64,000 nucleotides of DNA from Candidatus Azotimanducaceae bacterium (GTDB lineage: Bacteria > Pseudomonadota > Gammaproteobacteria > Pseudomonadales > Azotimanducaceae). The position numbers and the translations under genes are program-made. The first letter of the stretch is position 1, and every line of letters begins with the position of its first letter. Where the stretch lies: positions 4,128,035 to 4,192,034 of the forward strand of contig OZ244212.1 in NCBI GenBank assembly GCA_965216695.1, read 5' to 3'. Shown piece by piece: positions 11,395 through 32,274 of the stretch. The notes below the pieces were generated by a model that did no database searches, was not told the origin of the DNA, and saw nothing but the letters and a program-made list of their open reading frames with translations.

Positions 11395-11397
11395 ACG

Positions 11398-12870
11398 GTG
11401 TCTGACGAAGTGGAGGAACGAAAACGCGGGGTAAGCTATCGCGACGCGGACGCAGAATATTTCGCCAATCGCGGACTGAAGCGCTACGCGGGCGTCTTTT
11501 CCCTGTGGGCGCTCGGCGTTGGGGCGGTAATCTCGGGCGACTTTTCGGGCTGGAACCTGGGTGTAGGGCAAGCCGGTTTCGGCGGCTTTTTGATCGCCGT
11601 TGCGTTGATCACCGTGATGTACGTCGGCTTGTGCTTTTCGATAGCCGAGATGTCGCCGGCGCTTCCGCACACCGGCGGTGCGTATTCGTTCGCACGCACC
11701 GCTCTGGGTCCTTGGGGCGGGTTCGTTACCGGTCTTGCGGAAAACATGGAGTATGTGATTACCACGGCGGTCGTCTGCTACTTCGCTGCGGCTTACCTGC
11801 AGAGCATCTTTGCGACGCCGGATGCGGTACAGCCGCTCTGGTGGGCGGCGTTGTATGTGGTGTTTGTGGGCCTGAATGTGCTGGGTGTGGAGGCGTCGTT
11901 TCGATTCGTCGTGATCATCACGCTCATCGCACTCGCCATACTGGTCGTGTTCTTTGTTAGCGCCATTCCCCATTTTGCATGGGGCAATCTATGGAACATT
12001 CCGCCCGATCCCGGTCATTCGACGTTCCTGCCTAAGGGGATTGCCGCGGTAGGCGCTGCATTGCCCTTTGCAATCTGGCTGTACCTGGCGATCGAGCAAC
12101 TGCCGCTCGCGGCCGAAGAATCGGTAGACGTAACGCGGGACATGCCGCGCGGCCTGCTCTGGGGTCTGGCGACATTGGTGCTGACAGGGTTGCTGGTGAC
12201 ATTTCTGAATATGGGCATCGGCGGCGGCGCCGCATACTATGGTTCGCAAACTGAAGAACCTCTGCTGGATGGCTTGAGGACCACGCTTGGCGCTACCAGC
12301 GGTACCGTGCTGGGATTGGTGGCTGTCGCTGGTCTGGTCGCGAGCTTTCACGCGATTATCTTCGCTTACGGCCGCAACATCTTCTCACTCAGCCGCGCCG
12401 GATATTTTCCGTCGTGGTTGTCGGTTACGCACGCGACGCGTAAGACGCCGCACGTCGCACTCATCGCTGGCGCCGTCCTAGGCTACGGCGTGCTGTTGCT
12501 GCTGTTTGTACTCGGTGATAGCGGTGCGTTTGGCGGCGTGATTCTGAATATGGCCGTGTTTGGCGCAGTGATCGCCTACGCGATGCAGATGTGGTCGTAC
12601 CTTGTACTGCGCCGTGAGTTCCCGGAACTGCCGCGGCCGTATCGTAGCCCGCTGGGGCGAACCGGTGCGTGGATAGCCCTCGTTATCGCGCTCTTGGCGT
12701 TCGTTATGTTGTTCGTCAATCCCGATTTCCGGCCCGGCGTCGTTGGCGTTGCATTGTGGTTTGTTGCGGGCCTCGCGTACTTCGGGTTCCACGCCCGAAA
12801 GCGCATGATTCGCTCACCGGAAGAGGCGTTTGCGATTGAACAGTCGCGGCGGTCATTGCGGCAGCCCTGA
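11398..12870 (+). CDS. APC-superfamily amino acid/ethanolamine permease
   Basis: About 12 hydrophobic segments. The N-terminal LKRYAGVFSLWALGVGAVISGDFSGWNLG resembles ethanolamine permeases. The GTG start lies 4 nt after the upstream stop. Confidence 0.8.
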   Translation: MSDEVEERKRGVSYRDADAEYFANRGLKRYAGVFSLWALGVGAVISGDFSGWNLGVGQAGFGGFLIAVALITVMYVGLCFSIAEMSPALPHTGGAYSFARTALGPWGGFVTGLAENMEYVITTAVVCYFAAAYLQSIFATPDAVQPLWWAALYVVFVGLNVLGVEASFRFVVIITLIALAILVVFFVSAIPHFAWGNLWNIPPDPGHSTFLPKGIAAVGAALPFAIWLYLAIEQLPLAAEESVDVTRDMPRGLLWGLATLVLTGLLVTFLNMGIGGGAAYYGSQTEEPLLDGLRTTLGATSGTVLGLVAVAGLVASFHAIIFAYGRNIFSLSRAGYFPSWLSVTHATRKTPHVALIAGAVLGYGVLLLLFVLGDSGAFGGVILNMAVFGAVIAYAMQMWSYLVLRREFPELPRPYRSPLGRTGAWIALVIALLAFVMLFVNPDFRPGVVGVALWFVAGLAYFGFHARKRMIRSPEEAFAIEQSRRSLRQP

Positions 12871-15135: not shown

Positions 15136-15271
15136 CCGACACCGCGGTTGGGCGCGTGTCAAGGCGCGCGAACCGTCCGTTAGTAACCTGAAAGACTATT
15201 CAAAGATTTCCGAAAGTCCAATTCCGGGCTGCCGTCTAGTCTGCAGACGAATGGAATTGCAGGAGAGATCT

Positions 15272-18399: not shown

Positions 18400-19830
18400 T
18401 TAACCAGGTCGATCCTCCTCGTCGGCCGCGGCGAGCGCCGTTCGAACGCCTGAGTATTGTGGCTGATCGATGAGTGCCTGCGTGAGTGTCGCAAATCGCA
18501 GGTAGTCCTGCAGCGCCGCATCAGTCAGACGCACATTCCCCGCGCGTAGCCGCCGGCACAACAGCTCTTTCAGTGTGACGTAGTCGCCGCGCGTTTCCAG
18601 CAGGTCTTCGAGCAGAGCTGTCTCTCGGGTTCGGTACGCGGATCCGTATTCGCTGTCGCGTTGCAGAATATCGAGAGAATTTGCGGCGACGCGCGCGAGA
18701 AACTGGGTTCTTCCGGTGGTAGACGCCATGACATCGCCGCGTAGAAAGTCGCGGACGCTGGTCAGCAATTCATCGTTGCGAGGCATGCTCTTGTCGCGCG
18801 TGGCTGCGCCCACCTCCGGCAACGCTACCGTGCCAGGAATCAACAGGTTCGCGCAATCGATCTGGCACTCCGAACTGCGCCGGCCGATGGCGGGACGCTC
18901 GACGGTTGCGTCCGGGCCCGTACGGTAATGTTCCGCCATCGTAAGGCAGCCGATGGCCCAGCTGAAGGAGCCGTAGACGATCCAGAACGCAACGCGTTGG
19001 GCATCTACCGCTTTGCCGCTGATCGCGCTGTACCCGGCAAAAAGATCGTCGAGATTGCCGAACCCGCCCACGGTTTGTTGCGTGTTTCCAAACCGCCACG
19101 AGTTGGTGCACAGCCAGCCAAGGTCGCGCATCGGATCGCCGACGTGGGCGCCTTCCCAATCCAGTACGCCAACGATTCCGTCCTGCGGCGTTACCATCAA
19201 ATTGCCATTACGGAAATCGCCGTGGACAAGCCGCAGGTCGCTGTGTTCGGGCAGATTGTCCAGCAACCATCGGGCCGTGTAGTCGATCATTGGCTGCGGC
19301 GTATCAAACGTCTGGTAGCGATCCCACGCCAAACGAATGACGTCGCCCGTGTCGCGCTGTTCGAGTTTACTTCGCAGACCACCTTGGTCGACGTCGATCG
19401 CGTGGATGCGGGCCAGTAGCTCGCCGCATTGGTATGCGAGCTTGCCGCGGATGTCGGCAAAGGCGTCGCCGCGAGCAATGCGCGCGCCAAGCGTCTCGCC
19501 GTCAAGCCACTGCATGACGAATCCGGGCCCGAGGTCGTCTGAGGGTTGCAGTACGTAGTGGACGTCCGGCTCCGGGACCCCGGCGTTGGCCGCGGCGCGG
19601 AAGAGGGCGGCTTCTACTTCAAGTCCGGGTTGGCCGGGCGCTTGTTCACTGACGACGCCCCCGGCGGCGCGGCGCAGGCACAGTGGCATGTCGCCCGCGG
19701 CGGTTTCGATAACGAGTCGATAAGTTTCCTGATTGGCGCCGCCGGAAAGGCGTTCACAGTGCTGCAGCGAGACAAACCCACCAATCTCCCGCGACAGGAT
19801 GGTTTCCAGGGCTGGCTCGATGGTGTTCAT
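18400..19830 (-). CDS. phosphotransferase (APH/choline kinase-like) family protein with extra C-terminal domain
   Basis: Kinase catalytic loop LVHGDFRNGNLMV and VLDWEGAHVGDP. The start was set at MNTIEPALE; the upstream extension would run into the neighbouring divergent gene. Confidence 0.75.
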   Translation of the reverse strand: MNTIEPALETILSREIGGFVSLQHCERLSGGANQETYRLVIETAAGDMPLCLRRAAGGVVSEQAPGQPGLEVEAALFRAAANAGVPEPDVHYVLQPSDDLGPGFVMQWLDGETLGARIARGDAFADIRGKLAYQCGELLARIHAIDVDQGGLRSKLEQRDTGDVIRLAWDRYQTFDTPQPMIDYTARWLLDNLPEHSDLRLVHGDFRNGNLMVTPQDGIVGVLDWEGAHVGDPMRDLGWLCTNSWRFGNTQQTVGGFGNLDDLFAGYSAISGKAVDAQRVAFWIVYGSFSWAIGCLTMAEHYRTGPDATVERPAIGRRSSECQIDCANLLIPGTVALPEVGAATRDKSMPRNDELLTSVRDFLRGDVMASTTGRTQFLARVAANSLDILQRDSEYGSAYRTRETALLEDLLETRGDYVTLKELLCRRLRAGNVRLTDAALQDYLRFATLTQALIDQPQYSGVRTALAAADEEDRPG

Positions 19831-19968
19831 CGGATGCTCGCAAGGATAGTTAGTGGACGGATGCTTAGTATAGTCGTCTTGCGCCAATCTGCCGCCAGGC
19901 GCACGGCGCCTTGGTATCTGTGTTCTGTGCGCTGATTGCATACGAGATTCTCGCTACACTGCCAAGCG

Positions 19969-22209
19969 ATGACCACCGCTGAGACATCCGGTACACCAAC
20001 TCCCGCCTATGAAGGAGAGGGCGGGTTCGTATTCGTGTGCTACTCGCACGAGGATTCGGATTCCGTTTATCAGGCGATAAGCATCCTCACCGATGCCGAC
20101 GTCAACGTGTGGTACGACGAGGGCATTCGTCCAGGTGCCGAATGGACCGACGAGCTAGCGAATGCCATTACTAATTGTGATCGGTTCCTTTTTTTTGCCA
20201 CTCCGCGCTCCGTCGATTCACGTCACTGCCGTAACGAGATTCAGTTTGCGATCAACTGCGACAAGGAAATTCTCGTTGTGTATCTTGAAGCGACGCAGCT
20301 GACGCCGGGTCTGGAACTGGCGTTGGGGTGGCGACAGGCGCTGATTCGATCGCAACTCGACGAGTCCACGTACGCGCGGCGCCTGGTGGCCGCCGTATCC
20401 GCGTCCAGTGATAGCGACGACATGGCCAAGTCCGGGCCGACCGGAACGCGCGGCGTGGTGACGCGCCGATGGGGTCGCCGCGCCGTCGCATGGATTGCGG
20501 TGCTCGGGGTGGTTCTCAGTGGCGTGCTGTATTGGATACTGGGTGCGCGTACGCCGTTACGAGCGTCCGGGCAGTCGACGTCGATCGCGATGCTGCCGTT
20601 GCAGAACCTCGGCGGCTTCGCAGACGATACGTACTTTCCAGACAGTTTCTCGGAGGATCTGCTCAATCGACTAGTGTCGGTGGAAGGTCTGTCCGTGGTG
20701 TCGCGGAGGGCATCTTTCGGGTTTCGCGAGACCCCGGGCAACCGTATAGATCTTGCGGAGGTTGCCGTCACGCTCGGCGTACGCAATATCTTGTCGGGTT
20801 ACGTTAGAAAAGTTCAAGACTCGTTGCACCTGAGTCTGGAGCTGGTGGAAGTGAAAGACGATTTGCCCACTATCCGTTGGAGCAAACGATACGAAGATCG
20901 ACCGATGTCGGAAGTACTCGCAATCCAGGCTGAGGTAACCAGGTTGGTGGCTTCAGAGTTTTTCCCTGGGGGCTTGAGCGATGAAACCCGGGTTCGCGTC
21001 GCTAATCACTCCACTGACAATGTGGAAGCGTACAACAGCTATCTCGAGGCGCGTGGCATTCTGCGAAAGCCCCTGAACGCCGCGCTCATAGATCGTGCGG
21101 CCGCGCTGTTCGATGCGGCAGTTGCGCTCGATCCGGAGTTTGCCTGGGCACGCGCCGGATTGTGCTCGACATACACGCTCGAGTACCGGCGTGAGGGAAC
21201 CTTCGCCAACGCGACGAACGCATGCGAAGCCCTGACGGGGTATGCGGTGGAACTTTTCGAAGTTCGACTCGCGTTGGGTGAATACCTGGTGGAAATTGGC
21301 GAAACGGAACGCGCCGTGACGGAACTTCAGGGCGCGGTGCAACTGAATCCGAACTCGGCGGATGCGCGAATCGGACTCGCGCGATCTCTCGCCGCGCGAT
21401 TTACAGCGAACAACACCGAGCTGGACCGGGTGCGTGCCGAAGAAGCGTATCTAGAAGGGATAGCGCTCGAGCCGACCTACTGGTTTGCACATCATGCGTA
21501 TGCGAGCTATCTGATCTCGCGTGGCGAGCTCGACGAGGCCCAGAGACAACTCGAACGATCGCTTGAACTGGAACCGGACAACCCATCCACGTCGAATAAT
21601 CTTGCGAATGTTTTGTTTCGCAAGGGAGAGAACGATGCGGCCGTCTTGATCTGGAACGCGGTGCTTGAGAAGGACGCCGGCAACCGATGGGCACACAGCG
21701 GCCTTGGCATACTGCACCACTATGATCGTGAGTTCTCGAAGGCAATAGATCATTTTCGTAGCGCCATCGATGCGGCGGGTGCCGATCACCAACTGTGGGG
21801 GCGTCTCGGTGAATCCGCTCGGCTGCTTCCTGATCGGCAGGTGGAATCACAGAAAGCGTTCGGCGAAGCGATAGCGTTAGCGCGCGAGTCGTTGCAGTTT
21901 GATCCCCGGGACTGGCAGACAAAGGGCTACATAGCCCTCTACTCGGCGTATTTGGGCGATTTTGAAACGGCAGAGGCGTCTCTCAAAGAGATGTTTGCGC
22001 TGAATTCGAGTCGAGAGCCGATGACGCACTACTGGGCCGCGTTGATTGCGTACGAGCAGGGCGAGCTGGAACGGACGTTCGCGGAGCTGGAGCAGGCTCT
22101 GCGATCGGGTTTCGACCAACAGAAGAAGTTTATCGCAGACGAGCCCGCGCTCGATGCACTTCGCGCAGAAGCGCCGGAAAGGTTTGATGCGCTAATTCGA
22201 CGCTTCTGA
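19969..22209 (+). CDS. TIR domain - TM - TolB-N-like - TPR receptor-like protein
   Basis: N-terminal TIR_2-type sequence FVFVCYSHEDSDSVYQAI...VNVWYDEGIRPGAEW...FLFFATPRSVDSRHCRNEIQFA. One TM follows (AVAWIAVLGVVLSGVLYWIL), then SIAMLPLQNLGG...YFPDSFSEDLL (as in the CadC-like paralogue) and about 400 aa of TPR repeats. Confidence 0.8.
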   Translation: MTTAETSGTPTPAYEGEGGFVFVCYSHEDSDSVYQAISILTDADVNVWYDEGIRPGAEWTDELANAITNCDRFLFFATPRSVDSRHCRNEIQFAINCDKEILVVYLEATQLTPGLELALGWRQALIRSQLDESTYARRLVAAVSASSDSDDMAKSGPTGTRGVVTRRWGRRAVAWIAVLGVVLSGVLYWILGARTPLRASGQSTSIAMLPLQNLGGFADDTYFPDSFSEDLLNRLVSVEGLSVVSRRASFGFRETPGNRIDLAEVAVTLGVRNILSGYVRKVQDSLHLSLELVEVKDDLPTIRWSKRYEDRPMSEVLAIQAEVTRLVASEFFPGGLSDETRVRVANHSTDNVEAYNSYLEARGILRKPLNAALIDRAAALFDAAVALDPEFAWARAGLCSTYTLEYRREGTFANATNACEALTGYAVELFEVRLALGEYLVEIGETERAVTELQGAVQLNPNSADARIGLARSLAARFTANNTELDRVRAEEAYLEGIALEPTYWFAHHAYASYLISRGELDEAQRQLERSLELEPDNPSTSNNLANVLFRKGENDAAVLIWNAVLEKDAGNRWAHSGLGILHHYDREFSKAIDHFRSAIDAAGADHQLWGRLGESARLLPDRQVESQKAFGEAIALARESLQFDPRDWQTKGYIALYSAYLGDFETAEASLKEMFALNSSREPMTHYWAALIAYEQGELERTFAELEQALRSGFDQQKKFIADEPALDALRAEAPERFDALIRRF

Positions 22210-22304
22210 TGCTGCGTGCATTGCGGCTGGAGCCGGCCGATCCAACGACTTGATTTCGTTGAACCTCGGGCGCAGACTGATCGCGAATGCCAGAGGGGAA
22301 TGAG

Positions 22305-22472
22305 ATGACAGAACTTCTTGAATCGAGCGACGGGACAAGTCGCTTCCGTCAATTTTTGCAAATGATCGGTGACGACGACAAGCCGAAACCGGGACCGCCC
22401 GATGACGTGCCGAAACCGGGGCCTCCGGACGACGTGCCGAAACCCGGCCCGCCGCCGACTGACCCGCACTGA
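22305..22472 (+). CDS. Pro-rich tandem-repeat microprotein (55 aa), hypothetical
   Basis: A GAGGGG SD lies ~7 nt before ATG 22305. The product is MTELLESSDGTSRFRQFLQMIGDDDKPKPGPPDDVPKPGPPDDVPKPGPPPTDPH. It starts 96 nt after the TIR gene stop on the same strand. Confidence 0.35.
   Translation: MTELLESSDGTSRFRQFLQMIGDDDKPKPGPPDDVPKPGPPDDVPKPGPPPTDPH
22383..22460 (+). repeat. 2.9 x 27-nt tandem repeat encoding (P)KPGPPDDV units
   Basis: CCGAAACCGGGACCGCCCGATGACGTG (22383-22409), CCGAAACCGGGGCCTCCGGACGACGTG (22410-22436), and the partial unit CCGAAACCCGGCCCGCCGCCGACT. Confidence 0.8.
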
Positions 22473-22478
22473 TTGCGC

Positions 22479-22503
22479 CGTGGCGTTTCGCGGAGACGCC
22501 GCG
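22479..22503. terminator. possible bidirectional hairpin between convergent transcription units
   Basis: CGTGGCGT (22479-22486) pairs with ACGCCGCG (22496-22503), 8 bp including one G-U, with a 9-nt loop. It lies between the stops at 22472 and 22504. No T-tract. Confidence 0.3.
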
Positions 22504-23292
22504 TCAAACGGTAAACGGGGCCTCGGCGTCGTATTCTTCTGAGTGGGCGCCGAGCCGTGCGAGCACAGGTTTTTGTTTGTCCGGCATCAACGCGTACATA
22601 CGCTCGAAGAGTCCCGGGTAACCTCCAGCAGATGTATCATCCAGGGCGTCAAGCAGCGCGGAGGTCAGGCGTCCGTGCTGCCGGGTGCTGTTCTCGTAAG
22701 AGAGCTGATCTTCGTGACACCCGGCAAAGTGCGTAATAAACGCGCCTACGGGTTCTCTGGGTGGGAGCTCCTTGCGAATCCTCGAATACATTTCGGGGTC
22801 GAGATAACGAATGATCTCGCTCGTATCGTCGTCCATGGCTTTTGCGACATCGTCGTCGCTGCCGCGGAGCATCGAGCCTGAGTGACAACAGTCTGTAATG
22901 AAAAGGACGCGTACACCGGGCTGAAACGTTTGCCACAACGCGTACAGTTCGTCGTCAATCAACTGTCCATCGTGAAGACACATCGTTTCGTCCTTCCCGT
23001 TTTCTTCGTCCCCGTCCTTGTCCCGCGTCCGGTTACCGTGCCCAGAATAATAGAGAACGAACAGATCGCCTGATGTAAGCGTTTTTGCGGCGGAGCGGAT
23101 TTCGGAAACGACTCGGTCCTTCGTACCGTCTTTGGAGAGCAGGATGGTATTTGTTAACCCGTGCGCTGCGGTGACGTCGGCGACTGCTAACGCGTCACGC
23201 TCGGCAAATCGGAGCTTGCCGTCCCATTCGCCGCCGTAACTGTTTTTGTCGCACAGGTTCATGCCGACAAGGCATGCAAGACCTTTTTTCAT
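22504..23292 (-). CDS. peptidase C14 caspase-family protein (orthocaspase), stand-alone catalytic domain
   Basis: Catalytic His context LFVLYYSGHGNR and catalytic Cys context VLFITDCCHSGS. GAGGAG SD upstream. No signal peptide and no accessory domain. Confidence 0.85.
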   Translation of the reverse strand: MKKGLACLVGMNLCDKNSYGGEWDGKLRFAERDALAVADVTAAHGLTNTILLSKDGTKDRVVSEIRSAAKTLTSGDLFVLYYSGHGNRTRDKDGDEENGKDETMCLHDGQLIDDELYALWQTFQPGVRVLFITDCCHSGSMLRGSDDDVAKAMDDDTSEIIRYLDPEMYSRIRKELPPREPVGAFITHFAGCHEDQLSYENSTRQHGRLTSALLDALDDTSAGGYPGLFERMYALMPDKQKPVLARLGAHSEEYDAEAPFTV

Positions 23293-23334
23293 TCGCGTTC
23301 TCCTCGTAATGTATTCATGACGTGTGGTTGGATG

Positions 23335-24120
23335 TCACTGGCAGCGGCTTTTCTCCCAACGGATGTCTAACGCTACGCGTTCATTTGGCGCCTCCAGCGT
23401 CTCCGCCCGACGCAACCACAAACATACATTCTCAGCGGGCAGGTCGCAGACAAGTTGGGGAAGGCCGGCGTTGCGACGTTGGCATACGCCGGATTGAGCC
23501 AGGTTGGTGGTCAAAAAATTTCGGCCTGTCAGCACGATGGTCTGTTCGAGGTCGCTCGTAAGGAAGTGAGCGTGAAACGTCGCGAGACATCGGTCTGCCG
23601 TGCATGGCTCATCGGAACCGACGAGCGTCAATTTGAAATTTGCGTCAGGCACGGCCCAGAATTCGTCGTTCGTATTCACGAACGCCGAGCGGTGCCAGGT
23701 GGGCACGGCGCCCGCCGCATTCATTCGGACCGCAGACGGGAGAATATAAATGTCACCGTCTCGCGTTCCGGAATGTTCGTGGATGGGTGCATAGGGGTGT
23801 TCGTGAGCGGGTGCGTAAGGATGCTCGTGGGCTGGTGCGTAGGGGTGGTCGTGCACGAGCGCGTACTGGTCGTGGCGGTGTGTCTTGCTTACCGGGTCGG
23901 GGGCTGTCAGTAACGGCCACGCGACCGACAGTGGGATGTAGATCGCGGCGATCGTGCCCCCCCAGACCATGACGTTCCGGACAACCTGTTCCCAGCGTCG
24001 CGCGGACGCCTGCACCGATTCGGACCTTTGGCTCAGGATTGCTATTTCCGTGTCCGAGCGCTTTTGGTCCTGCGCAGGGGCAGGGTCATTCGGGTTGGGG
24101 TCTTTGTTGTGTTCGTTCAT
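23335..24120 (-). CDS. single-pass membrane protein with His-rich octapeptide repeats and Cys-rich C-terminal domain, hypothetical
   Basis: The start ATG 24120 overlaps the upstream stop (ATGA). A charged N-terminus is followed by one TM (VMVWGGTIAAIYIPLSVAWPLL), then HDHPYAPAHEHPYAPAHEHPYAPIHEH, then a ~150-aa domain with six Cys. Confidence 0.6.
   Translation of the reverse strand: MNEHNKDPNPNDPAPAQDQKRSDTEIAILSQRSESVQASARRWEQVVRNVMVWGGTIAAIYIPLSVAWPLLTAPDPVSKTHRHDQYALVHDHPYAPAHEHPYAPAHEHPYAPIHEHSGTRDGDIYILPSAVRMNAAGAVPTWHRSAFVNTNDEFWAVPDANFKLTLVGSDEPCTADRCLATFHAHFLTSDLEQTIVLTGRNFLTTNLAQSGVCQRRNAGLPQLVCDLPAENVCLWLRRAETLEAPNERVALDIRWEKSRCQ
23773..23844 (-). repeat. 3 x 24-nt tandem repeat encoding HEHPYAPA units
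   Basis: Plus-strand units at 23773-23796, 23797-23820 and 23821-23844 (e.g. GTGTTCGTGAGCGGGTGCGTAAGG), with a degenerate fourth unit following. Confidence 0.8.
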
Positions 24121-25226
24121 TTCGGGGTATCGCCGGTGTGCTCGAGCCATGCGATCAGCTCGGCCACGCGGCCCCTGTCCAGTTCTCGTTCGGCGCGCGC
24201 AGGCGGAAGGAGGCTCACCAGTTTTAGCAGGCGGACAATCACCGGCGCGCCTGCAAATAGACGCAGGTAACCGGCCAGGCGGCCTAAGGTAACCCCGGAG
24301 AGCATGGCCATGATCGCGAACGGTTCGTACTTGCCGATGCCACAGGCGAATGCGGCTAAGAAGCTCCTGTCTTTGGCGTCACAATCACCGTCGTTCAACA
24401 TCCAGCCGAGCAGGTACCAGCCGAGTAACGCCACCGCGAGCCCGAAAAGGACTTTCAGACCGTCGGCCTGCAGGATGCGCTGCCGGTTAGTAACAAGGTC
24501 ACGGATCCGAGTCTGTAGATACAAAGCTTTTCTCGGCGGTGACATGTCGCGTTCCTCGACAGGAATAGGCGCGATGACCTGGTCGAGTATGGATTCGTCA
24601 ACAACTTCGAAGTGGTAAGTCGTTTCCGTAATGCCGTCAAGATCGGCGAGTTGCTGCCGAATTTCTCGAAGCGTCATACCGCGTTGCAGTGCGTCGTAGA
24701 AGAAGGCGGAAAACTCGGCCGCTGCGCTGCTCTGCACAGGTAGCGTTGTGCCTACGATGCAGTCGGCCACGCCTCTCATGTTCCGAGCAAGACCCGCCGA
24801 CCAGCAGCAGTTCAGGACGACTATGCGAATGCCTTTTCCGCGTAGTGCTTCTACCAACCACTCGTTGGGTACGTACTCTCCGAAGATCTTTTCGTCTTTG
24901 AGAATGAGAGCAGCGCCCCACTCGGCCTCCTCAGCCTCAGTCGCAGCGCGTTCGCCGTGACCGCTGAAATGCAGAACAGTCACGGGCCGTTCTGCGAGGT
25001 GGCGGTGAACGTCCTCGCGGCGTACTTCCGGAACCACCTCAAGTTCGACCCGGCCTTCGCTACGTGCGTCGAATAGCGCTTCGGTGACACCGCTGAGTTC
25101 GGGCCACAGATCCAACTTCTCGTATTTCGCAAGCGCTTTTTGACGATCCGGTTCGCCCTGAGCGACAAAGGTATCTGGGTCCGGTTTAACGAACTGGGGG
25201 TTTGCGGTGAGGTAGAGAATTCTCAT
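24117..25226 (-). CDS. CHAT-like caspase-fold protease domain fused to C-terminal transmembrane segments
   Basis: MRILYLTANPQ... followed by VTVLHFSGHG (His) and IRIVVLNCCWSAG (Cys), the spacing and context typical of CHAT domains. The C-terminus has hydrophobic helices (LKVLFGLAVALLGWYLLGWML, FAIMAMLSGVTLGRLAGYL, FAGAPVIVRLLKLVSLL). The start is uncertain; ATG 25313 is the alternative. Confidence 0.7.
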   Translation of the reverse strand: MRILYLTANPQFVKPDPDTFVAQGEPDRQKALAKYEKLDLWPELSGVTEALFDARSEGRVELEVVPEVRREDVHRHLAERPVTVLHFSGHGERAATEAEEAEWGAALILKDEKIFGEYVPNEWLVEALRGKGIRIVVLNCCWSAGLARNMRGVADCIVGTTLPVQSSAAAEFSAFFYDALQRGMTLREIRQQLADLDGITETTYHFEVVDESILDQVIAPIPVEERDMSPPRKALYLQTRIRDLVTNRQRILQADGLKVLFGLAVALLGWYLLGWMLNDGDCDAKDRSFLAAFACGIGKYEPFAIMAMLSGVTLGRLAGYLRLFAGAPVIVRLLKLVSLLPPARAERELDRGRVAELIAWLEHTGDTPK

Positions 25227-25278
25227 TCGTGCGCCATGTGTTGAGTGTCGGAAAGCGGAGCCGCGATGAATCGGTTCA

Positions 25279-28200
25279 TCAGAATGCTGCCATTGCGTCG
25301 ATGAAAAACCCATCCGACCGGTACGTGCCGCGTCTCAAGTCATCGTCGAAGCCCGAGAAGTTGTAGCCCACGCCGAACCTCAAGCTGCCGATGAATCGAG
25401 AATTCAGCAAGCGCGGATCAATGTGCTTGTACAGACCCACGAGTACGCCGGTTGACGATGCGTCGGCCTTTCGATCGATCAGGGTGCGATACTCGGTGAG
25501 CAGTTCGACCGGGTTGTGTGCAAAGTCGTCTGAACCGGTGTCGCCGAAGCGGTAGCCGAATCCCGCCACGATCATTCCCAGACTCACGTCCTGCCAGCCG
25601 CCGACACCGCGCCGCAGTCGCTGTCGACCTTCTCGATAAGCGAGTTTGCCTTTTAACTGAAAACGCGGGGAGAGCTCGAATATTCCCTCGGTCGACAGCA
25701 GGTGACTGCGTTCATCACCGGGGGTGCCAATCTGCCCCGGCGTCCCTACGTCGTGCAGAAGTCCGTACCGAACGAGCGCATTGAATCTATCCGAACGAAC
25801 CGGGCGATAAGCGAAGCCCGCATTGAGTTCTATGAATCGGCCCGACGTGCGATCTGTCATTCGATCCCGAACGAGTGCGGCATTCAGTCGCGCGACGAGC
25901 CTGCGGTTGTCGTCGATCAGATACGAGAACTCACTTGCGGTGACGAACTGATGATTGTCGACCGATTGGCCTTCGTCACGACGCAGCTCTAATCGGCTGT
26001 GCAGTCGCCAGTTCTCCGCTGTGTAGGTTCCACCGATGCTGGTTGCCATGCGTTCGAACTCCCCGCGATCGCTCACCACACGGCTGCCCTGAAAGGTGGT
26101 CGCAAGCGTGAGGTTGTTCGACAGATCGTAGTCCAGACCGAATACGTGGCCGGTACTGGCTTCCCGGTTCATGCGACCGACTCTCGACTCGCCGTACAGT
26201 GCTAGCCTATTGCCGAGCGCCTGCCGCTGGCCAAACGTGAGCAGGCTGCTCTCTGTGTCGGTGCGGTCCGGGTTGACGGAGTAACTTCCGTACAGCTCTC
26301 GTCCTTCCGCCAGCTGATAGCGGCTTGCGAACTGCGTGGTTGCGCCAGAGCCGACACCACCGGATACGTTGAAGACGGTCGCGGAGCCTAGCGCGTAGTC
26401 AATCCCACCCAGCAATGCGCTGCCTCGGTCGCCTTTGCTGATTTCGACGCTCAACGCAACGCTGTCGTTCATCTGGCGGTTAACGCCCGTGCTCAGTAAT
26501 CGATTGTCGCCGTAGTCACGGTCCGAATGGACGTCGTGTTGCGCCGTTCCATACACGGTCGTCGACTCGTCGACGCGTCGCGCAACGCGCATACCGGCAA
26601 CACCTCCCTGTCCGTTTCGAGTTCCGGAGAAAAGTATCGGCGTGTCGATCGCATCCGCGGTTACGTCGTCCCATCGGATCTCTGAGTCCAGCTGCCAGCA
26701 GCGCTCGTCGACATCACAACGCCAGTGTTTAGACAACTGGAATCGCGCGTTGCGCTGTGTAAGTCCATCGGACCGTTCAAGCGACGCCATGCCGGCGAGC
26801 ACTCTCAATCCTCCACCGATGTCGCTGTCGAGGTTGAAGCCGGTATCGGTCTCGTTAGCGGGGCCGTTAAAACGGCTGGACGCGAAACCCGCGTCGCGCT
26901 TTTGCCACCATGCCTGTACGTATCCGGGGCGATCTTTGAAGTCGGCTAGGTCGATTCGGGTGTCGAGTGCGAATGCGTGCGCGTGTCCTGCATGCGTCGG
27001 CGACGCTCGGTTGTTCGGAAGGTTAAAGGAGAGTCCACCGTCGAACGAGGCGTTGCCTCGAACCGTGTTGCCGTTGCTGGCCGCGACTTCCGCCGCAACG
27101 TAGGTGCCCGACGAGTGGCGCCAGGTAACGTCCAATGCATCGAGCCGATGGTCGTCTGATCCTTGCTCGTCGGTAACGTGCGTTAGACCAACCGACACGC
27201 GGTCAGCCAGCCATGTTTTGCCACGCACGCCGTACACCAGATCCTGGGCGCTGAACTCCGCAGGAACGTGTTCGTAGTCAATATGCAAGAAGACGCGTTC
27301 GCCCTGTAACGCCTCATTCCGCACCACCGGATTGTGTCTTTCCCGAACGACCTGAGACAGCGGCCGCTTCAGTAAGAGACGGCCGTGGGCCGGATCGAAT
27401 TCGTAGTCTGCGCCCGGGGTCAGCAACTGACGTTCTTCGAGTTGAGTCGTTCCGTTCCGGCGCACTTCAACCCAGACTTTCTCGGAGCCCATCACTACGT
27501 CGGTATCCGGAAGATAGTAGAGGGATCCGCCCGTTGCCAGGAACGAAGCATTTGCGGAAACTGACTGCGCCTCGGATGCAAAGAGCTCAATCTCGTAGCG
27601 CCGGTCCCCGAAAACGGTCGCCAATGCGCTGGTCTTTGTTAGACGCAAACCGTAGAGCGATCGGTCGAAGTATCCGAGTTGAGTGTCGGTAAACGCGGTC
27701 TCGAAATTGCCCCACAGCGCTCTGTTGCGTCTGTACGCAATCTCAGCGTACATCGAACCCTGGGATTCGGCTGCCATGATTGTTGTTGAATCATCACCAT
27801 AGGTTGGATAGTAGTTGTCGGTGTCGAGACGGCGAAACAGACGTTGCCGGTCGCGCGCCGCGACGTTGTCGTTCAGATCGCGAAGCGGCGCGTGGGAGGA
27901 GTCAAACTGCACAGTCCACTCCAACGGAGCTCCATCGGTGTCGCCGCCAACGTGGCGAACGCCTTGCCAGAATCCGGCCACTCGGCCGTCTCCGAACAGC
28001 CCGCGGTCCAGATCCGCTGGACCGCCGAAGGTGTCCAACGCGCCGTTCGCCGTACTGGACCCCACGGTAAGGTCGACGATGGCAGCGAATCGTTGCCGGT
28101 TGTCGGCTGATCCTACGACAGGAACGCTTATGTCTGGAAGTATCGGACCGCTTGCGTTCAATCGCTGGGCCGCCAGAAGTTCGCCACCTACAATATCGAG

Positions 28201-31200
28201 CCTTGAAGAAACGGGTCCACAGATACCTACCGTGCGCGGCCGTTTCCAGCGCCCGTCGGGGGTCGTGCGCCATCTCGATACGCGGTAGCCGATCCGCGAG
28301 TCTGTCACAAGCGGGTGCGTCGTTAGCGTGGGATCACGTACGAATAGAAACAACGCCTCCCAGTCTGTTGAGTGGGCAGGTCCGGAGGGTAAGAACGAGC
28401 CGCGATAGAACTCGATCGTCTGTTCTGCTTCAACGGTGACGATGCGATTCGTTTCCTCCGCATCACGCCAGCAGGCTGTTGCCTCACGATCGTATGCGTC
28501 ACTCGAGGTCGCCGCTGACGGACGCATGCACATCTCGATCGCGCTGTGATGGTGATTGGTGAATCTGAAGGCGTATAGCTGATTTGCGTCGTCTGCCTGG
28601 GCGTCGAGCGCCGTACGGATATCGCAACACTCGAGCACGGCGGTTCGGTTCTCGGCCGAAAAGATTGCATCGTCCTGATAGAAACGCTGATCGCGTCGTA
28701 CTTCAACCACACCTCGTCGACCGCCGTGCTGGGGGGGTTGTTCGAACCCGGCAGCTTCGACATGCCGGGCAGCTAAAGCGGACTGCGCGAGTGACGTCTT
28801 CTCGGTAGCGTTCCAGATGCCGGCGATGTTTGCAGCTAAACGACTTTGATCGACGATCAATCGCTCGCGCACGTCGTTGTTTCCGTTGCGACGCCGACTG
28901 ACGAGGTAGGGCACGTGTGCGGGAAGTTTCAGATTGCTGGTTGCTAGAAGATTGATCGTCTGGTCGGAAGTTGGGTAGTAACGATTGTTCGCGGGCACTT
29001 CCAGTGCGCGCTCCTTGGTCCAATCGACATCTGCGAGTGTTGGCTGTGTACCGGAGAAAGGGTCCCGACAGAGTCCGCCGAAACTGGGGTACGCATAGAG
29101 GCGATAGCGCAACCGGTCCCGCGCGCGAACGTCTGCGACATTCACCTTGATAGTGGTGCCGGATGATTCCGCGCGCCGAATACCGCGCCAGGTCGAATCC
29201 GGCGCTTCCGGTTGTGACACCGCAACCAGGTGGCATTGGGCGGCGTCGGTGTAATTCGATTCCGACTTGAACTGAAATGTCCAGCCTTCGGCTCCGCGTT
29301 CTGCAGACTCCAGGGCTATGTGGAGCTTCTTCTCGCGATCAAACGACCCTACGTAATCCAGTTGTTCGAAGTCGCCACAACAATCGCTGGATACGCGTTC
29401 ACTCTGCCAATGGACTGCGAAGTTGGCTTTTGCGAGCCCGCCCGGTACCAGACGCACGAACTGTTTCGGATCCGAATGGATGACCGTCAATCGGTCGCCC
29501 GGAATGGATCCGGGGTCCAGTTTCACCAGATAGTTCCTGCCGGTACTCGGAACGTCGATGTCGGCGATGTGGTACCTGCCGTGCTGATCCGTGCGAATGA
29601 TCAATCCCTCGGGCGTCAACAGCACTGCCCCAGGAATCCCGTTTTCGTCGTCTCCAGACTGTACCCCGTCGCGATTTCGATCGTTGAACACCTTGCCGAT
29701 TACGGTGGCTTTCTGAAACAACGGATCGGCCACCACGTTCACCGTGGCTTCGTCGCTCGTGGGCTGGCTAACGGGGCTGCGGGCAACGGAGTGGTTTGTA
29801 TGGGGTCCGATCGATGCCGCAGGCGTGACTCGGCTCCGAAACTGAATCAGCACGGTTTCGCTCTGAGCGAGGTCAAAGGGGGCAAACGTCAGCTGCGGAC
29901 CGACTTCGACCGCTATCGGGATGCGTTCGTCATCGGTGGTACCCAGCCGGCCATCCGCGCCGGCGCGAACTAGTTCGGCCGCGTCGGACGCCGGACGGAA
30001 TGCCGGCGGGCCTGAATCTGTGACAGTCACCGCCCTCTGATCGCCGGGGAGCGTGTTGCGGATCGAAATTGAATAGGTGACGTGCCGCCCGACCATCGTG
30101 GTGACCGGGTTGGCTTCCACGGTCAATTGCAGGCCGGATACGGGCGCGTTCCGATAGGGGATTGGCGTTGGCACGTCCTCGTCGGGTATCCCATCCCCGT
30201 TCGGGTCGGCGTCTGCACCGTTCGTCGACACGTCCGTCTCTATGCCACCAACGGTGGCGACGGCACTGTTGAAGATCTCCCCCGTATCTGCCCGCGGCGT
30301 GAATCGCACGTTGAACTGCACGTGTGCGCGTGCTCCGGCGGGCATTGCATCGGTGCCCTGTAACAGACGCAGGTCGCTCCTCCCGTCGAAACTCGGATTG
30401 ATCGCCAGGGTTTCCGACTGAAGTGTTCCGGGTACAACCTCGAACGAATCGGCAGCCGCAAACGTGGTGACGAGGTCGTCGATCACGGATACCTGTTCTA
30501 CAGTGGATTCACCGAGGTTTTCCAGGGCGATCGTGATAGTCGTCTCGCGTTGCGAACCGGATACGACCCGTCCGAAGGACGCGGCCTTTGCCAGTCCGAG
30601 ATGCGAAGCGATTGGTTGCACGTTGAATGGAATGGGCGTTGGGTCGAACTCTTCCGGCGATCCATCGCCGTCGGGATCGGGGTTCGCTCCGTTCGTCGAA
30701 TCGTCGCTCACACCCCGCCGCGCGGATGCGAACGCCTGGTTGAGAAATGGCGAAGCGGTTGTGCCGGGTTGGAATCGTACGGTCAACGACACGGACGCGG
30801 TATCGCCAGCGGCCAGACGGTCGCTGCCGTGTAGCAGCAGTGTTTGTTGATCTCCGTCGAACGACGGGTTGATCGTTAGCTTGGAAGACGCCAGGCTCAA
30901 TACTTGAAACGATTCCGCATCGGCAAACGTCTGAGCCAGCGAGTCGACGATCTGTAGGTCGTGTGCGATAGCGTTCCCGAAGTTTTGCACGCGGAAAATC
31001 AACGGTACCGTGAATCCGCCACCTTCTGCCGATTCGACCTCACCGGCCCGCTTTGCCAACCCCAGAATGGCAAAGGGCAGATCAATCATGGTGGGAGCGC
31101 ATCCCGCTTGGGCAGTGGTCAGTTCGTCAGGACGCGAGCAATCGGAAAACGTACTACGGAAGCGTGCATTTTCCGCCGTAACCTCCGCCGAATTCCGAAA

Positions 31201-31629
31201 CGGTCCGATGTGTGAGGCTGGGTCGATGTCTGCGGTGAATGTAACGGTTCCCGTCTGGTCCCGTCGCAGCGTTTCGCCTGGTGCTAACAACCGGTGGTCG
31301 ACGCGGCCGTCAAATTCGGGGTTCGCCGTCGCGAAGCGGCCACCGACCGCCACGGAGTGAATGCGAACCAGCGTTGCTGGTGCGATTGAGTCCGCGACCG
31401 CGTCGGACACCTGGACTTCCGACGCAACCAGATCGCCAGTATTGCGTACCGAAATCTGCATCCGCACCGCGAAACTACCGTCCGCGTTCTCTGAGGTGGA
31501 TAGTACCGTTTTGCGCAGTGACAGCGCGAGATCCGGATAGGCGGGCGCCGAGGCGATCGCTAATAAGCAGATGACCGTCGCGCAGGTGACGCGTCGCACG
31601 AACGCACGGTCACAGCCGGTTTCCCCCAT
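25279..31629 (-). CDS. giant (2116 aa) surface/outer-membrane protein: signal peptide, DUF11-type Ig-like repeats, SdrD-B-like domain, C-terminal beta-barrel-like region
   Basis: AGGAG SD before ATG 31629, signal VTCATVICLLAIASAPA. There are four ~150-aa repeats, two ending in STNGANPDPDGDGSPEEFDPTPIPF / STNGADADPNGDGIPDEDVPTPIPY, then VIGKVFNDRNRDGVQSGDDENGIPG. The last ~700 aa have an alternating beta-strand pattern ending ...FFIDAMAAF (terminal Phe). Confidence 0.8.
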   Translation of the reverse strand: MGETGCDRAFVRRVTCATVICLLAIASAPAYPDLALSLRKTVLSTSENADGSFAVRMQISVRNTGDLVASEVQVSDAVADSIAPATLVRIHSVAVGGRFATANPEFDGRVDHRLLAPGETLRRDQTGTVTFTADIDPASHIGPFRNSAEVTAENARFRSTFSDCSRPDELTTAQAGCAPTMIDLPFAILGLAKRAGEVESAEGGGFTVPLIFRVQNFGNAIAHDLQIVDSLAQTFADAESFQVLSLASSKLTINPSFDGDQQTLLLHGSDRLAAGDTASVSLTVRFQPGTTASPFLNQAFASARRGVSDDSTNGANPDPDGDGSPEEFDPTPIPFNVQPIASHLGLAKAASFGRVVSGSQRETTITIALENLGESTVEQVSVIDDLVTTFAAADSFEVVPGTLQSETLAINPSFDGRSDLRLLQGTDAMPAGARAHVQFNVRFTPRADTGEIFNSAVATVGGIETDVSTNGADADPNGDGIPDEDVPTPIPYRNAPVSGLQLTVEANPVTTMVGRHVTYSISIRNTLPGDQRAVTVTDSGPPAFRPASDAAELVRAGADGRLGTTDDERIPIAVEVGPQLTFAPFDLAQSETVLIQFRSRVTPAASIGPHTNHSVARSPVSQPTSDEATVNVVADPLFQKATVIGKVFNDRNRDGVQSGDDENGIPGAVLLTPEGLIIRTDQHGRYHIADIDVPSTGRNYLVKLDPGSIPGDRLTVIHSDPKQFVRLVPGGLAKANFAVHWQSERVSSDCCGDFEQLDYVGSFDREKKLHIALESAERGAEGWTFQFKSESNYTDAAQCHLVAVSQPEAPDSTWRGIRRAESSGTTIKVNVADVRARDRLRYRLYAYPSFGGLCRDPFSGTQPTLADVDWTKERALEVPANNRYYPTSDQTINLLATSNLKLPAHVPYLVSRRRNGNNDVRERLIVDQSRLAANIAGIWNATEKTSLAQSALAARHVEAAGFEQPPQHGGRRGVVEVRRDQRFYQDDAIFSAENRTAVLECCDIRTALDAQADDANQLYAFRFTNHHHSAIEMCMRPSAATSSDAYDREATACWRDAEETNRIVTVEAEQTIEFYRGSFLPSGPAHSTDWEALFLFVRDPTLTTHPLVTDSRIGYRVSRWRTTPDGRWKRPRTVGICGPVSSRLDIVGGELLAAQRLNASGPILPDISVPVVGSADNRQRFAAIVDLTVGSSTANGALDTFGGPADLDRGLFGDGRVAGFWQGVRHVGGDTDGAPLEWTVQFDSSHAPLRDLNDNVAARDRQRLFRRLDTDNYYPTYGDDSTTIMAAESQGSMYAEIAYRRNRALWGNFETAFTDTQLGYFDRSLYGLRLTKTSALATVFGDRRYEIELFASEAQSVSANASFLATGGSLYYLPDTDVVMGSEKVWVEVRRNGTTQLEERQLLTPGADYEFDPAHGRLLLKRPLSQVVRERHNPVVRNEALQGERVFLHIDYEHVPAEFSAQDLVYGVRGKTWLADRVSVGLTHVTDEQGSDDHRLDALDVTWRHSSGTYVAAEVAASNGNTVRGNASFDGGLSFNLPNNRASPTHAGHAHAFALDTRIDLADFKDRPGYVQAWWQKRDAGFASSRFNGPANETDTGFNLDSDIGGGLRVLAGMASLERSDGLTQRNARFQLSKHWRCDVDERCWQLDSEIRWDDVTADAIDTPILFSGTRNGQGGVAGMRVARRVDESTTVYGTAQHDVHSDRDYGDNRLLSTGVNRQMNDSVALSVEISKGDRGSALLGGIDYALGSATVFNVSGGVGSGATTQFASRYQLAEGRELYGSYSVNPDRTDTESSLLTFGQRQALGNRLALYGESRVGRMNREASTGHVFGLDYDLSNNLTLATTFQGSRVVSDRGEFERMATSIGGTYTAENWRLHSRLELRRDEGQSVDNHQFVTASEFSYLIDDNRRLVARLNAALVRDRMTDRTSGRFIELNAGFAYRPVRSDRFNALVRYGLLHDVGTPGQIGTPGDERSHLLSTEGIFELSPRFQLKGKLAYREGRQRLRRGVGGWQDVSLGMIVAGFGYRFGDTGSDDFAHNPVELLTEYRTLIDRKADASSTGVLVGLYKHIDPRLLNSRFIGSLRFGVGYNFSGFDDDLRRGTYRSDGFFIDAMAAF

Positions 31630-31893
31630 CCTGTGCTCCTGATCAGGACCTATGCTGCCTTTATCCTTTGTTCTTCTATGGCTTCCTGTTTGATCCGGAT
31701 TTCGGTGATCCGAACGCAAATGGGCAGTTGCCTGACAATCTGCCTCCAAGCTTATTGCTATTGTTAGCGTATTGCCAACCGGGTCTCGGACGGCGCGTCG
31801 ACCCTGTCGTTATGAGTTTCGGAGCGGCCGCGCGGTTCAACGGACGCGAACCCCATCTCGGTACTGGGCGTCGGGATTGGCTAGCGTCGCCGG

Positions 31894-32274
31894 ATGCGCG
31901 AGATTCGAACCCAAAAGTTGCTCGTACAGCTGTGGAAAACAGGTCCGGCCCTGTTTTGGCTGTTGGCGCTGTCGGGCTGTTCGAGTATGACTCCGCAACA
32001 GTGCCTTACCGCCGACTGGTACCTTGAAGGGTATGCGGCCGGTCTCGATGGCAAATCGCCTGTGGCATTCACATCGATCAACAATGGGTGCAACCTGCAC
32101 GGAATCCACATCGACAAACACCGGTTTGTGTATGGCTGGATAGCAGCTCAGCATTCGCGCTCCCCTGGCGACACACTGATTGCCGATACAGGCCGCAACG
32201 GAGCTGCGCAGAGCACCTCCGACAGGAACGACCATTCATCGACCACGGCGGTATCAGCTCCTTCAGGGCGGTAG
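31894..32274 (+). CDS. small lipoprotein (DUF2799-like)
   Basis: Lipobox LLALSGC followed by MTPQQCLTADWYLEGYAAGLDG, as I recall for DUF2799. Confidence 0.55.
   Translation: MREIRTQKLLVQLWKTGPALFWLLALSGCSSMTPQQCLTADWYLEGYAAGLDGKSPVAFTSINNGCNLHGIHIDKHRFVYGWIAAQHSRSPGDTLIADTGRNGAAQSTSDRNDHSSTTAVSAPSGR

Follow-up and report, generated by a model that had tools for sequence, protein, structure and literature searches.

A conserved gene block from Candidatus Azotimanducaceae encodes two caspase-fold proteases, a TIR-TPR membrane protein, a repeat peptide and a giant outer-membrane protein

RESULTS AND DISCUSSION

Composition of the gene block

We describe a block of seven genes in a 64,000-nucleotide stretch of DNA from Candidatus Azotimanducaceae bacterium (GenBank assembly GCA_965216695.1, contig OZ244212.1, positions 4,128,035 to 4,192,034 of the forward strand). 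We refer to this whole stretch as the window and count all positions from its first letter. On the plus strand lie the genes for a TIR-transmembrane (TM)-TolB_N-like-TPR protein [19969..22209; 746 amino acids (aa)] and an acidic, Pro-rich repeat peptide (22305..22472; 55 aa, or 61 aa if translation begins at ATG 22287). Convergent to them is a minus-strand operon of four genes. These encode, in the order of transcription, a giant outer-membrane protein (25279..31629; 2116 aa), a CHAT-TM protein (24117..25226; 369 aa), a His/Cys-rich single-pass membrane protein that we call the six-Cys protein (23335..24120; 261 aa), and a stand-alone C14 orthocaspase of the metacaspase type (22504..23292; 262 aa). 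A gene for a small DUF2799-like lipoprotein with the lipobox LSGC (31894..32274, plus strand; start tentative) is divergent from the giant gene.

The original prediction, which was made from the sequence of the window alone, had proposed the first six of these genes as an undescribed TIR and protease locus. A public gene call made independently on this DNA (ENA ERZ25071410 contig_12, locus L010) agrees on the products, of 2116, 369, 261, 262, 55 and 746 aa. The predicted TIR, TPR, CHAT, C14 and DUF11 domains were recovered with Pfam profiles, and those of TIR, CHAT and C14 type were matched to the sequences of solved structures as well. The inventory was nevertheless incomplete, as the conserved lipoprotein gene had been missed.

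Homologues settled two of the gene starts. A 398-aa version of the CHAT-TM protein probably begins 29 codons too far upstream; we use the 369-aa version because every homologue begins at M30. A 2156-aa start for the giant protein was dropped for the one that agrees with its homologues. The stop codon of the CHAT-TM gene and the ATG of the six-Cys gene share an ATGA overlap, and the coordinates thus bear out the coupling first proposed for this pair. Such coupling suggests that the two proteins form one complex.

Topology was assigned with a hydropathy scan. The TIR and six-Cys proteins each have one TM segment, the CHAT domain is followed by two hydrophobic segments, and the giant protein has the hydrophobic segment of a signal peptide, while the C14 protease and the repeat peptide lack any hydrophobic segment. 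On this basis, the TIR domain, the CHAT domain, the C14 protease and the repeat peptide are cytoplasmic, and the TPR and Cys-rich parts of the two single-pass proteins are periplasmic.

Conservation, rarity and distribution

We identified 14 related loci (L001 to L007 and L014 to L020) through scans of species-representative genomes and metagenomes and look-ups of the encoding contigs. Synteny was established with tblastn and all-against-all clustering of open reading frames (ORFs). As far as each contig extends, all 14 agree in carrying the genes for the giant, CHAT-TM, six-Cys and C14 proteins, the peptide on the opposite strand, and the TolB_N-like/TPR protein. Protein identities across the block range from 26 to 64%, and the synteny is conserved far beyond close relatives. 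Furthermore, in each of the 10 loci long enough to cover this site, the TolB_N-like/TPR membrane-protein gene adjoins the operon (30 to 57% identity). The linkage of the TIR-TPR unit to the protease operon, which had first been drawn from adjacency in the window, is now backed by this recurrence. The flanks of the block vary among loci and carry metabolic genes, including Rieske oxygenases, FMO, SDR, CoA-transferases and permeases.

Two of the protein families are scarce. We found only 30 relatives of the CHAT-TM protein in a set of 5.8 billion clustered proteins, and the six-Cys protein has only 25 representatives among 1.84 billion proteins in an exhaustive HMMER search. Note that a word-indexed homologue search matched the six-Cys protein to itself only, and its relatives all came from the exhaustive search. 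Both families occur in this block only. Because a metagenome scan for further loci added just four short contigs, we conclude that the family is really rare.

Nearly all related loci come from gammaproteobacterial metagenome-assembled genomes (MAGs) labelled Pseudomonadales or Ca. Azotimanducaceae. One locus (L003, JBNMMV010000084.1) lies in a MAG labelled Limisphaerales (Verrucomicrobiota), which points to horizontal transfer or mis-binning. Almost all other related loci with a named organism are from Gammaproteobacteria; one is labelled Pseudomonadota only. Distant stand-alone C14 genes are found on plasmids of Rhizobium and Bacillus, where their surroundings are heterogeneous and uninformative.

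The repeat peptide is selected unit by unit

A small ORF occupies the same site in every locus that reaches it (L001, L002, L004 to L007 and L014 to L016). It runs convergent to the C14 gene, whose 3′ end it abuts, and directly adjoins the TPR-protein gene in all loci. In the window, a GAGGGG Shine-Dalgarno-like site is located just upstream of ATG 22305. The encoded peptide has a short helical N-terminus followed by 9-residue units, of which there are three of the PKPGPPDDV type in the window and between one and seven across loci. Unit sequences are PKPGVPDVA in L001 and L002, P[KR]PGPPDLE in L004, PKPGPPGMD in L006 and PKPGPDDIV in L016. Every unit contains exactly one K or R, always followed by Pro, and exchange between K and R is the sole change tolerated in the unit core. 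In four lineages, the final residue of the last unit is H or R, in register with the unit K. No TM segment or signal peptide was detected in the peptide by the hydropathy scan.

Adjacent units within one gene differ by 98 synonymous and only 6 nonsynonymous codon differences. Among the units of L001, the corresponding counts are 28 and 0. Five of the six nonsynonymous changes fall in degenerate last units, and the remaining one is K→R. This synonymous bias indicates that the ORF is translated and that each unit is held identical by selection, not by recent duplication. The 55-aa ORF is a well-supported small protein of a kind that gene finders could easily overlook. The original prediction had rightly listed it as a Pro-rich microprotein, but the purifying selection on each unit, which is the strongest single signal at the locus, had escaped it.

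Two caspase-fold proteases

The CHAT-TM protein matches the Pfam CHAT family (3.8e-10) and consists of a CHAT domain, a two-helix membrane hairpin and a C-terminal helix, with K/R residues on the CHAT side. Its candidate catalytic residues are H90 and C140, and the motifs HFSGHG and LNCCWS are invariant across 17 homologues. A profile of the family aligns its His and Cys with those of PDB 8TL0 ("CHAT domain-containing protein", 496 aa; 1.2e-19), over chain residues 297 to 457 only. The spacing of 47 between the aligned His and Cys equals that between H375 and C422 of SAVED-CHAT from Haliangium ochraceum, the residues mutated in that protease (10.1101/2023.06.23.546230). The sole CHAT match in PADLOC was to the SAVED_CHAT model, confined to its CHAT part (profile positions 396 to 445; 9e-5).

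The C14 gene belongs to the same operon, two genes downstream of the CHAT gene, and is kept in every locus that reaches it. Its product matches Pfam Peptidase_C14 (2.4e-16), has no signal peptide, and is similar over its full length to PDB 3BIJ (GSU0716; 3e-41). Matches to the metacaspases Yca1, AtMC4 and TbMCA2 range from 6e-12 to 1.6e-6. The catalytic residues are H85 and C136, and SGHG, D.CHSG and an acidic DGDEE.G.DET loop are invariant among 10 orthologues. In metacaspases, such motifs predict Lys or Arg at P1, a specificity that we would expect of this protease as well. About 15 residues past the catalytic Cys, an acidic linker that is otherwise variable contains an invariant Lys (residues ~145 to 160; 10 of 10 orthologues), which hints that this Lys could be a zymogen-processing site.

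A TIR-TPR membrane protein with an exchangeable cytoplasmic part

The 746-aa protein matches Pfam TIR_2 (8.8e-20) and ThsB_TIR (0.004), as well as many TPR families. Its TIR domain (residues ~18 to 120) contains a candidate catalytic E90 in the motif SRHCRNEIQ. Behind a TM helix (residues 173 to 191), with five K/R before it and two after, come a TolB_N-like region and then TPR repeats over ~350 aa. All eight loci with a TIR domain share S[RK]HCR[ND]E as an invariant motif, and its Glu aligns with the conserved Glu of the TLR2 and TLR6 TIR domains, a position that we take to be that of the catalytic Glu of NAD+-cleaving TIRs.

Of the 10 informative loci, 8 encode the TIR domain (the window, L004 to L007, L014, L015 and L019; 51 to 55% identity), and TIR-TPR orthologues are 43 to 57% identical in seven loci. 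In L002 and L016, the TPR protein lacks the TIR domain, has two additional TM helices in its place, and is encoded by an inverted gene. The TIR domain is thus a component of most informative loci but not, as had been supposed, a fixed one; the constant element is the periplasmic TolB_N-like and TPR module.

A paralogue in the window (12853..15162, minus strand) joins this TolB_N-like and TPR module to a CadC-type winged helix-turn-helix (wHTH; Trans_reg_C, 4e-14) without a TIR domain. A single genome therefore pairs the same sensor module with different cytoplasmic outputs. L015 encodes a second TIR-TM-TPR paralogue (10389..12161, plus strand), 4 kb from the TIR-TPR gene of its cluster, and the architecture is therefore a small family that extends beyond the cluster. 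In public gene calls, the TIR-TPR orthologue is split in L014 (13283..15510, minus strand) and truncated in L015 (4115..6355, minus strand). Since tblastn shows the full TIR region in both, these calls point to frameshifts or assembly errors and not to gene loss.

The six-Cys membrane protein

No Pfam, NCBIfam or PADLOC family matched the six-Cys protein. It has a conserved cytoplasmic N-terminal helix, one TM segment, a variable linker and a periplasmic beta domain of ~125 aa. The residues W142, P158, C173, C178, C213, C225, C233, W255 and C260 are invariant in the family alignment, and the C-terminal domain carries the motif WHR..F..GDEFWALPDA. In an AlphaFold2 (AF2) model, this domain is a compact beta structure with a predicted local distance difference test (pLDDT) score above 90. 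A Foldseek comparison of the model with the PDB returned no fold at E ≤ 0.001, and gave only lipocalin- or avidin-like matches at E ~0.07, too weak for assigning a function.

The protein had initially been described by its His repeat. This repeat is real: a 24-nucleotide tandem repeat (23774..23853) encodes a His-rich HEHPYAP linker. However, it is specific to this lineage, and other family members have collagen-like GKDG or unrelated linkers in its place. We therefore dropped the His repeat as a functional hallmark, as it is not conserved in the family; the conserved part is the periplasmic six-Cys beta domain.

The giant outer-membrane protein and its lipoprotein neighbor

An orthologue of the giant protein is present in every locus. 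The protein matches Pfam DUF11 (1e-16) and SdrD_B, and comprises a signal peptide, N-terminal DUF11/CLIPPER immunoglobulin (Ig)-like repeats, a poorly conserved middle, and a C-terminal beta-barrel of ~940 aa that ends in Phe. DUF11 has been renamed CLIPPER, an Ig-like fold that carries isopeptide bonds (PMC12617251). In an AF2 model, the C-terminal ~940 aa form a very large all-beta barrel of long antiparallel strands (pLDDT ~80), with ~36 or more strands as estimated from the DSSP string of the model. The signal peptide and barrel are in keeping with the outer-membrane location proposed at the outset. Foldseek matched the C-terminus to generic large barrels (LptD, TonB-dependent transporters, the FimD usher, SlpA and SprA). 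At TM-scores of only 0.13 to 0.22, the barrel could not be placed in any of these families.

The barrel (25279..28100) belongs to a large uncharacterized family with at least 757 relatives, which are outer-membrane proteins of ~1200 aa or larger and often fused to OmpA, DUF11 or SdrD_B domains. In the three surroundings of barrel relatives that we examined (L011, L012 and L013), no caspase or other protease, TIR or TPR partners were found. The protease association is therefore specific to one sub-clade, and the barrel family alone does not predict a system. In Cocleimonas (L011), the barrel gene follows a separate gene for a large Ig-repeat, adhesin-like protein; in L012, it follows one for a 1145-aa protein with no family match on record. 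The barrel family and the large protein preceding it may constitute a system, so far undescribed, that anchors or exports surface proteins. In the L006 giant protein, DPAPKPGP-type repeats occur in the N-terminal region (~2199..2300, plus strand) and are similar to the core motif of the small peptide. This likeness may be a coincidence of Pro-rich linkers or may reflect a common binding motif.

The lipoprotein ORF family is found upstream of the giant gene, on the opposite strand, in eight loci. Matches to Pfam DUF2799 are sub-threshold in the window (4.1e-4) and in L007 (4.8e-5), and the domain is recorded for the L014 and L016 orthologues. We count this lipoprotein, which lies outside the cytoplasm, as the product of the seventh gene of the block. 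The public gene call has instead a 105-aa gene on the minus strand (31837..32154), which lacks a conserved counterpart in other loci and is probably a mis-called shadow ORF.

Relation to described systems

In literature searches on the combination of domains, on CHAT with RiPP precursors and on the peptide motif, we found no description of this cluster, and Kaur et al. 2020 (PMC7159879) make no mention of an outer-membrane or TolB-linked caspase system. PADLOC called no system among the products of the block and returned only domain-level matches to a ThsB-like TIR, "caspase" and SAVED_CHAT. Matches from NCBIfam and Pfam were likewise at the level of domains, in line with the early view that no described system is present. 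That view has to be qualified in one respect, since the enzyme pairings have precedents (10.1101/2023.06.23.546230; 10.1101/2024.10.24.620036).

The first precedent is the type III-B CRISPR/CBASS-derived SAVED-CHAT of H. ochraceum, which cleaves and activates a stand-alone C14 protease, PCaspase, that is in turn inhibited by the small protein PCi (10.1101/2023.06.23.546230). In both cases, a CHAT protease and a small stand-alone Peptidase_C14 protein are encoded together, and 8TL0, with its His and Cys aligned, is the nearest PDB entry to the CHAT domain of the block. Experiments suggest that PCaspase has basic-residue specificity (10.1101/2023.06.23.546230), the same preference that metacaspase motifs predict here. 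The repeat peptide is a possible counterpart of PCi as a small accessory protein, although it is unrelated to the CI-2-like PCi. In contrast to SAVED-CHAT, the CHAT-TM protein has no SAVED domain; a membrane hairpin occupies the place of the sensor domain, and the protein is coupled to the periplasmic six-Cys protein. Furthermore, neither the block nor its flanks contain a CD-NTase cyclase, Cas genes, a sigma factor or a kinase, and the cluster adds a giant outer-membrane protein, a lipoprotein and a TIR-TPR receptor.

The second precedent is type IV Thoeris, a proven defence pair in which the TIR product N7-cADPR activates an Arg-specific, promiscuous executioner caspase (10.1101/2024.10.24.620036). 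There, as here, a TIR domain with a conserved Glu and a caspase-family protease share one conserved neighborhood. The published MacSyFinder rule for that system asks for two adjacent genes with at most one between them. In the block, the 55-aa peptide gene alone separates the TIR-TPR and C14 genes, but these are convergent and do not form one operon. Type IV Thoeris is a two-gene operon, often in defence islands, that encodes a short soluble TIR and a caspase with a C-terminal ligand-binding domain. Here, the TIR domain instead forms the N-terminal part of a transmembrane TPR protein of 746 aa; it is encoded convergently to the protease operon and is missing from 2 of the 10 loci. The C14 protein is a bare 262-aa protease domain that aligns end to end with the protease-only 3BIJ and has no extra domain, and the context is not a defence island. 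As regards Thoeris I and II, PADLOC gave ThsB-type TIR matches only (3.7e-9 and weaker), and no ThsA effector (SIR2-SLOG or Macro/TM).

Protease-effector modules gated by cleavage are widespread (PMC12642450; PMC7159879). The caspase-EACC1, Pepco and gasdermin modules resemble the block in that a caspase-like protease is encoded beside small nonenzymatic proteins that are candidates for cleavage, with membrane-associated death effectors recurring among them. However, searches of the six reported products with Pfam, PADLOC and NCBIfam detected no homologue of EACC1, Pepco or gasdermin. Against the NCBIfam model caspase_w_EACC1 (NF047832; cut-off 140), the C14 protease scores 36.9 bits and the CHAT-TM protein 13.9 bits, and the block has no STAND/Avs or other known sensor. 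By family, the C14 protein is closest to the C14B metacaspases, with full-length similarity to 3BIJ, the SGHG/DxCHSG dyad, and an acidic loop as in Yca1, AtMC4 and TbMCA2. It differs from them in lacking a p10-type extension or prodomain and in its place within a fixed seven-gene envelope cluster.

The TIR-TPR protein also has relatives in architecture. CadC-like wHTH-TolB_N-TPR regulators have the same periplasmic TolB_N-like and TPR module behind one TM helix, but their cytoplasmic domain is a DNA-binding wHTH and not a TIR. Toll-like receptors share extracytoplasmic solenoid repeats, one TM helix and a cytoplasmic TIR domain. The order here is TIR-TM-repeats (type II) and the repeats are TPR, not LRR, so the likeness is one of architecture and not of shown ancestry.

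A tentative model of an envelope-spanning module

From bacteria to humans, immunity and regulated cell death draw on TIR domains and caspase-family proteases. The original prediction had proposed a suicide or signalling role; we infer function from the composition, conservation and topology of the block, its conserved catalytic residues and the selection on its peptide. The locus could be an envelope-spanning sensor-effector module of the conflict or regulated cell death type, with a CHAT→orthocaspase cascade and a TIR output. We favor this model tentatively, as a possibility that falls somewhat short of being probable. The enzymes look competent because the TIR Glu, the CHAT His and Cys, and the C14 His and Cys with its acidic motif are all invariant.

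In such a module, the periplasmic six-Cys and TolB_N-like/TPR domains, together with the lipoprotein, would survey either the giant outer-membrane protein or envelope state, for example phage adsorption, envelope damage or cell contact. The signal would cross the inner membrane through the single-pass six-Cys protein and the CHAT-TM hairpin, and separately through the TM helix of the TPR protein. The membrane-bound CHAT protease would act as the initiator and cleave the C14 protease at the invariant-Lys linker, as SAVED-CHAT does with PCaspase, after which the Lys/Arg-specific orthocaspase would degrade cellular proteins. In most lineages, clustering of the TPR receptor would lead to NAD+ cleavage by the TIR domain or to a nucleotide signal; in the others, the extra TM helices might be an alternative effector that replaces the TIR domain. 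This swap of TIR for TM helices mirrors effector swapping in CBASS and Thoeris. The peptide could be a dedicated substrate of the orthocaspase or, more likely, a poorly cleavable K-P pseudosubstrate that restrains the protease, comparable to PCi.

Several observations weigh against this model. The flanks are metabolic in every locus and are not defence islands, no CHAT-TM relative was found on plasmids, and the narrow spread, almost only in gammaproteobacterial MAGs, suits a trait of one lineage better than a mobile defence system. The TIR domain is dispensable in some loci. We know of no defence system in which a giant outer-membrane protein is the sensor. Neither Pfam, PADLOC nor NCBIfam detected a domain that would bind nucleotides and so receive a TIR signal (SLOG, Macro, SAVED or the C-terminal domain of type IV Thoeris), and the K-P bonds of the peptide are only putative cleavage sites for the orthocaspase. 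Cleavage of C14 by CHAT and the role of the peptide are both proposed by analogy.

A bolder form of the same idea, which we consider rather unlikely, is that the block could be a bacterial counterpart of Toll-like-receptor logic assembled from unrelated parts. The solenoid TIR protein would be the receptor, CHAT the initiator, C14 the executioner, the giant outer-membrane protein the surface sensor, and the K-P pseudosubstrate (or a multi-copy pro-signal) the buffer. If so, it would represent a previously unknown class of envelope-triggered cell-death or signalling system.

Alternative functions

The repeat peptide could instead be a signal. The orthocaspase or the CHAT protease would cut a multi-copy propeptide into identical nonapeptides (e.g., PGxPDxxPK), which would reach the periplasm, where the TPR domain would read them and the TIR domain would convert into an output. 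The adjacency of the peptide gene to the TPR-protein gene in all loci recalls the receptor/propeptide gene layout of RRNPP systems, here in a Gram-negative, transmembrane form, and two proteases are encoded alongside. Units that are identical in protein despite scrambled codons (98:6 overall; 28:0 in L001) are expected if each yields the same product. Moreover, unit sequence differs between lineages and is uniform within one, as with pheromone specificities; the single K/R per unit tolerates exchange of K and R, the final H or R is in register with a cut after a basic residue, and several peptides have a helical, leader-like N-terminus that ends in GG. However, the peptide has no signal peptide or TM segment and the block encodes no exporter, yet the TPR domain is periplasmic. 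RRNPP receptors are cytoplasmic, with helix-turn-helix or phosphatase outputs and Sec-exported propeptides, unlike the periplasmic TPR domain, the TIR or TM-helix output and the leaderless peptide of the block. The K-P bond is in general a poor protease substrate, which counts against cleavage into units. Only one degenerate unit is present in L005, L007 and L015, and signalling leaves no role for the giant, lipoprotein and six-Cys proteins. On balance, we consider peptide signalling improbable.

We hold similarly low expectations of a role in the biogenesis, quality control or release of a giant adhesin, in which the TPR, lipoprotein and six-Cys components would assemble or hold the barrel and the proteases would process or remove it. 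The giant gene is the first in the operon and encodes by far the largest component, and elsewhere its barrel family is paired with adhesin-like Ig-repeat proteins encoded by separate genes. The assembly of outer-membrane proteins is commonly assisted by periplasmic TPR proteins and lipoproteins (BamD, BepA and LptE), and the non-mobile setting with metabolic flanks suits a housekeeping or envelope trait. The main difficulty is that both proteases face the cytoplasm, out of reach of a periplasmic or surface substrate, because neither has a signal peptide and, in the CHAT-TM protein, the TM helices come after the CHAT domain, with K/R on the CHAT side. For the same reason, we disfavor the original alternative of a LapG/LapA-like system. 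Such systems do resemble the block in that the gene for a giant, repeat-rich surface protein is accompanied by genes for a cysteine protease and for inner-membrane proteins that have periplasmic domains. In them, though, LapG is a periplasmic BTLCP protease, LapD a c-di-GMP receptor and LapA a type I secretion system (T1SS) substrate, whereas the block has cytoplasmic caspase-fold proteases and no BTLCP, GGDEF/EAL/HAMP or T1SS genes, nor a LapD-like c-di-GMP receptor. In addition, the three examined barrel-family relatives lack such partners, and adhesin biogenesis leaves the TIR domain and the repeat peptide unexplained.

That the TIR-TPR/peptide pair and the four-gene operon are merely independent neighbors, and the small ORF a noncoding repeat, is very improbable: the two units are convergent and not co-transcribed, and the TPR gene is flipped in L002 and L016, but this reading is already contradicted by the 98:6 synonymous bias, which shows that the ORF is translated, and by co-occurrence in 10 of 10 loci at 30 to 57% identity amid otherwise unrelated flanks, and the CHAT-TM and six-Cys families are confined to the block. 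The remaining probability belongs to functions outside those considered here.

Significance of the layout

The described bacterial comparators respond to cytoplasmic triggers, namely cyclic nucleotides, STAND NTPases or CRISPR effectors (10.1101/2023.06.23.546230; 10.1101/2024.10.24.620036; PMC12642450; PMC7159879). The block instead places TIR and caspase-fold enzymes at the inner membrane, coupled to periplasmic domains and a giant outer-membrane protein. This envelope-spanning layout is undescribed and includes new parts, while the enzyme pairings, CHAT→PCaspase and TIR→caspase, are already known. If the block is a death or defence module, it would show how a TIR enzyme and a protease cascade receive news of surface events. 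Three new parts would come with it: the six-Cys periplasmic domain, the CHAT-membrane hairpin, and a unit-selected repeat peptide, which may be a natural substrate or inhibitor of a caspase. If it serves peptide signalling or adhesin maintenance, it would reveal a non-immune role for caspase-fold proteases and TIR domains in free-living marine bacteria.

Other features of the window

Directly upstream of the TIR gene, a minus-strand gene (18400..19941) encodes a fusion of an APH-family phosphotransferase with DUF6285. The other loci do not keep this gene beside the cluster, and it is therefore probably unrelated. A hairpin with an 11-bp GC-rich stem (22479..22503) lies within the 31-nucleotide gap between the convergent peptide and C14 genes. 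The hairpin noted in the original prediction thus exists, but its minimum free energy of −17.5 kcal/mol is ordinary for this GC content (z = −1.14 against shuffled sequences), and we dropped it as meaningful evidence. A terminator scan did not call it. The hairpin may be a bidirectional terminator for the two convergent units.

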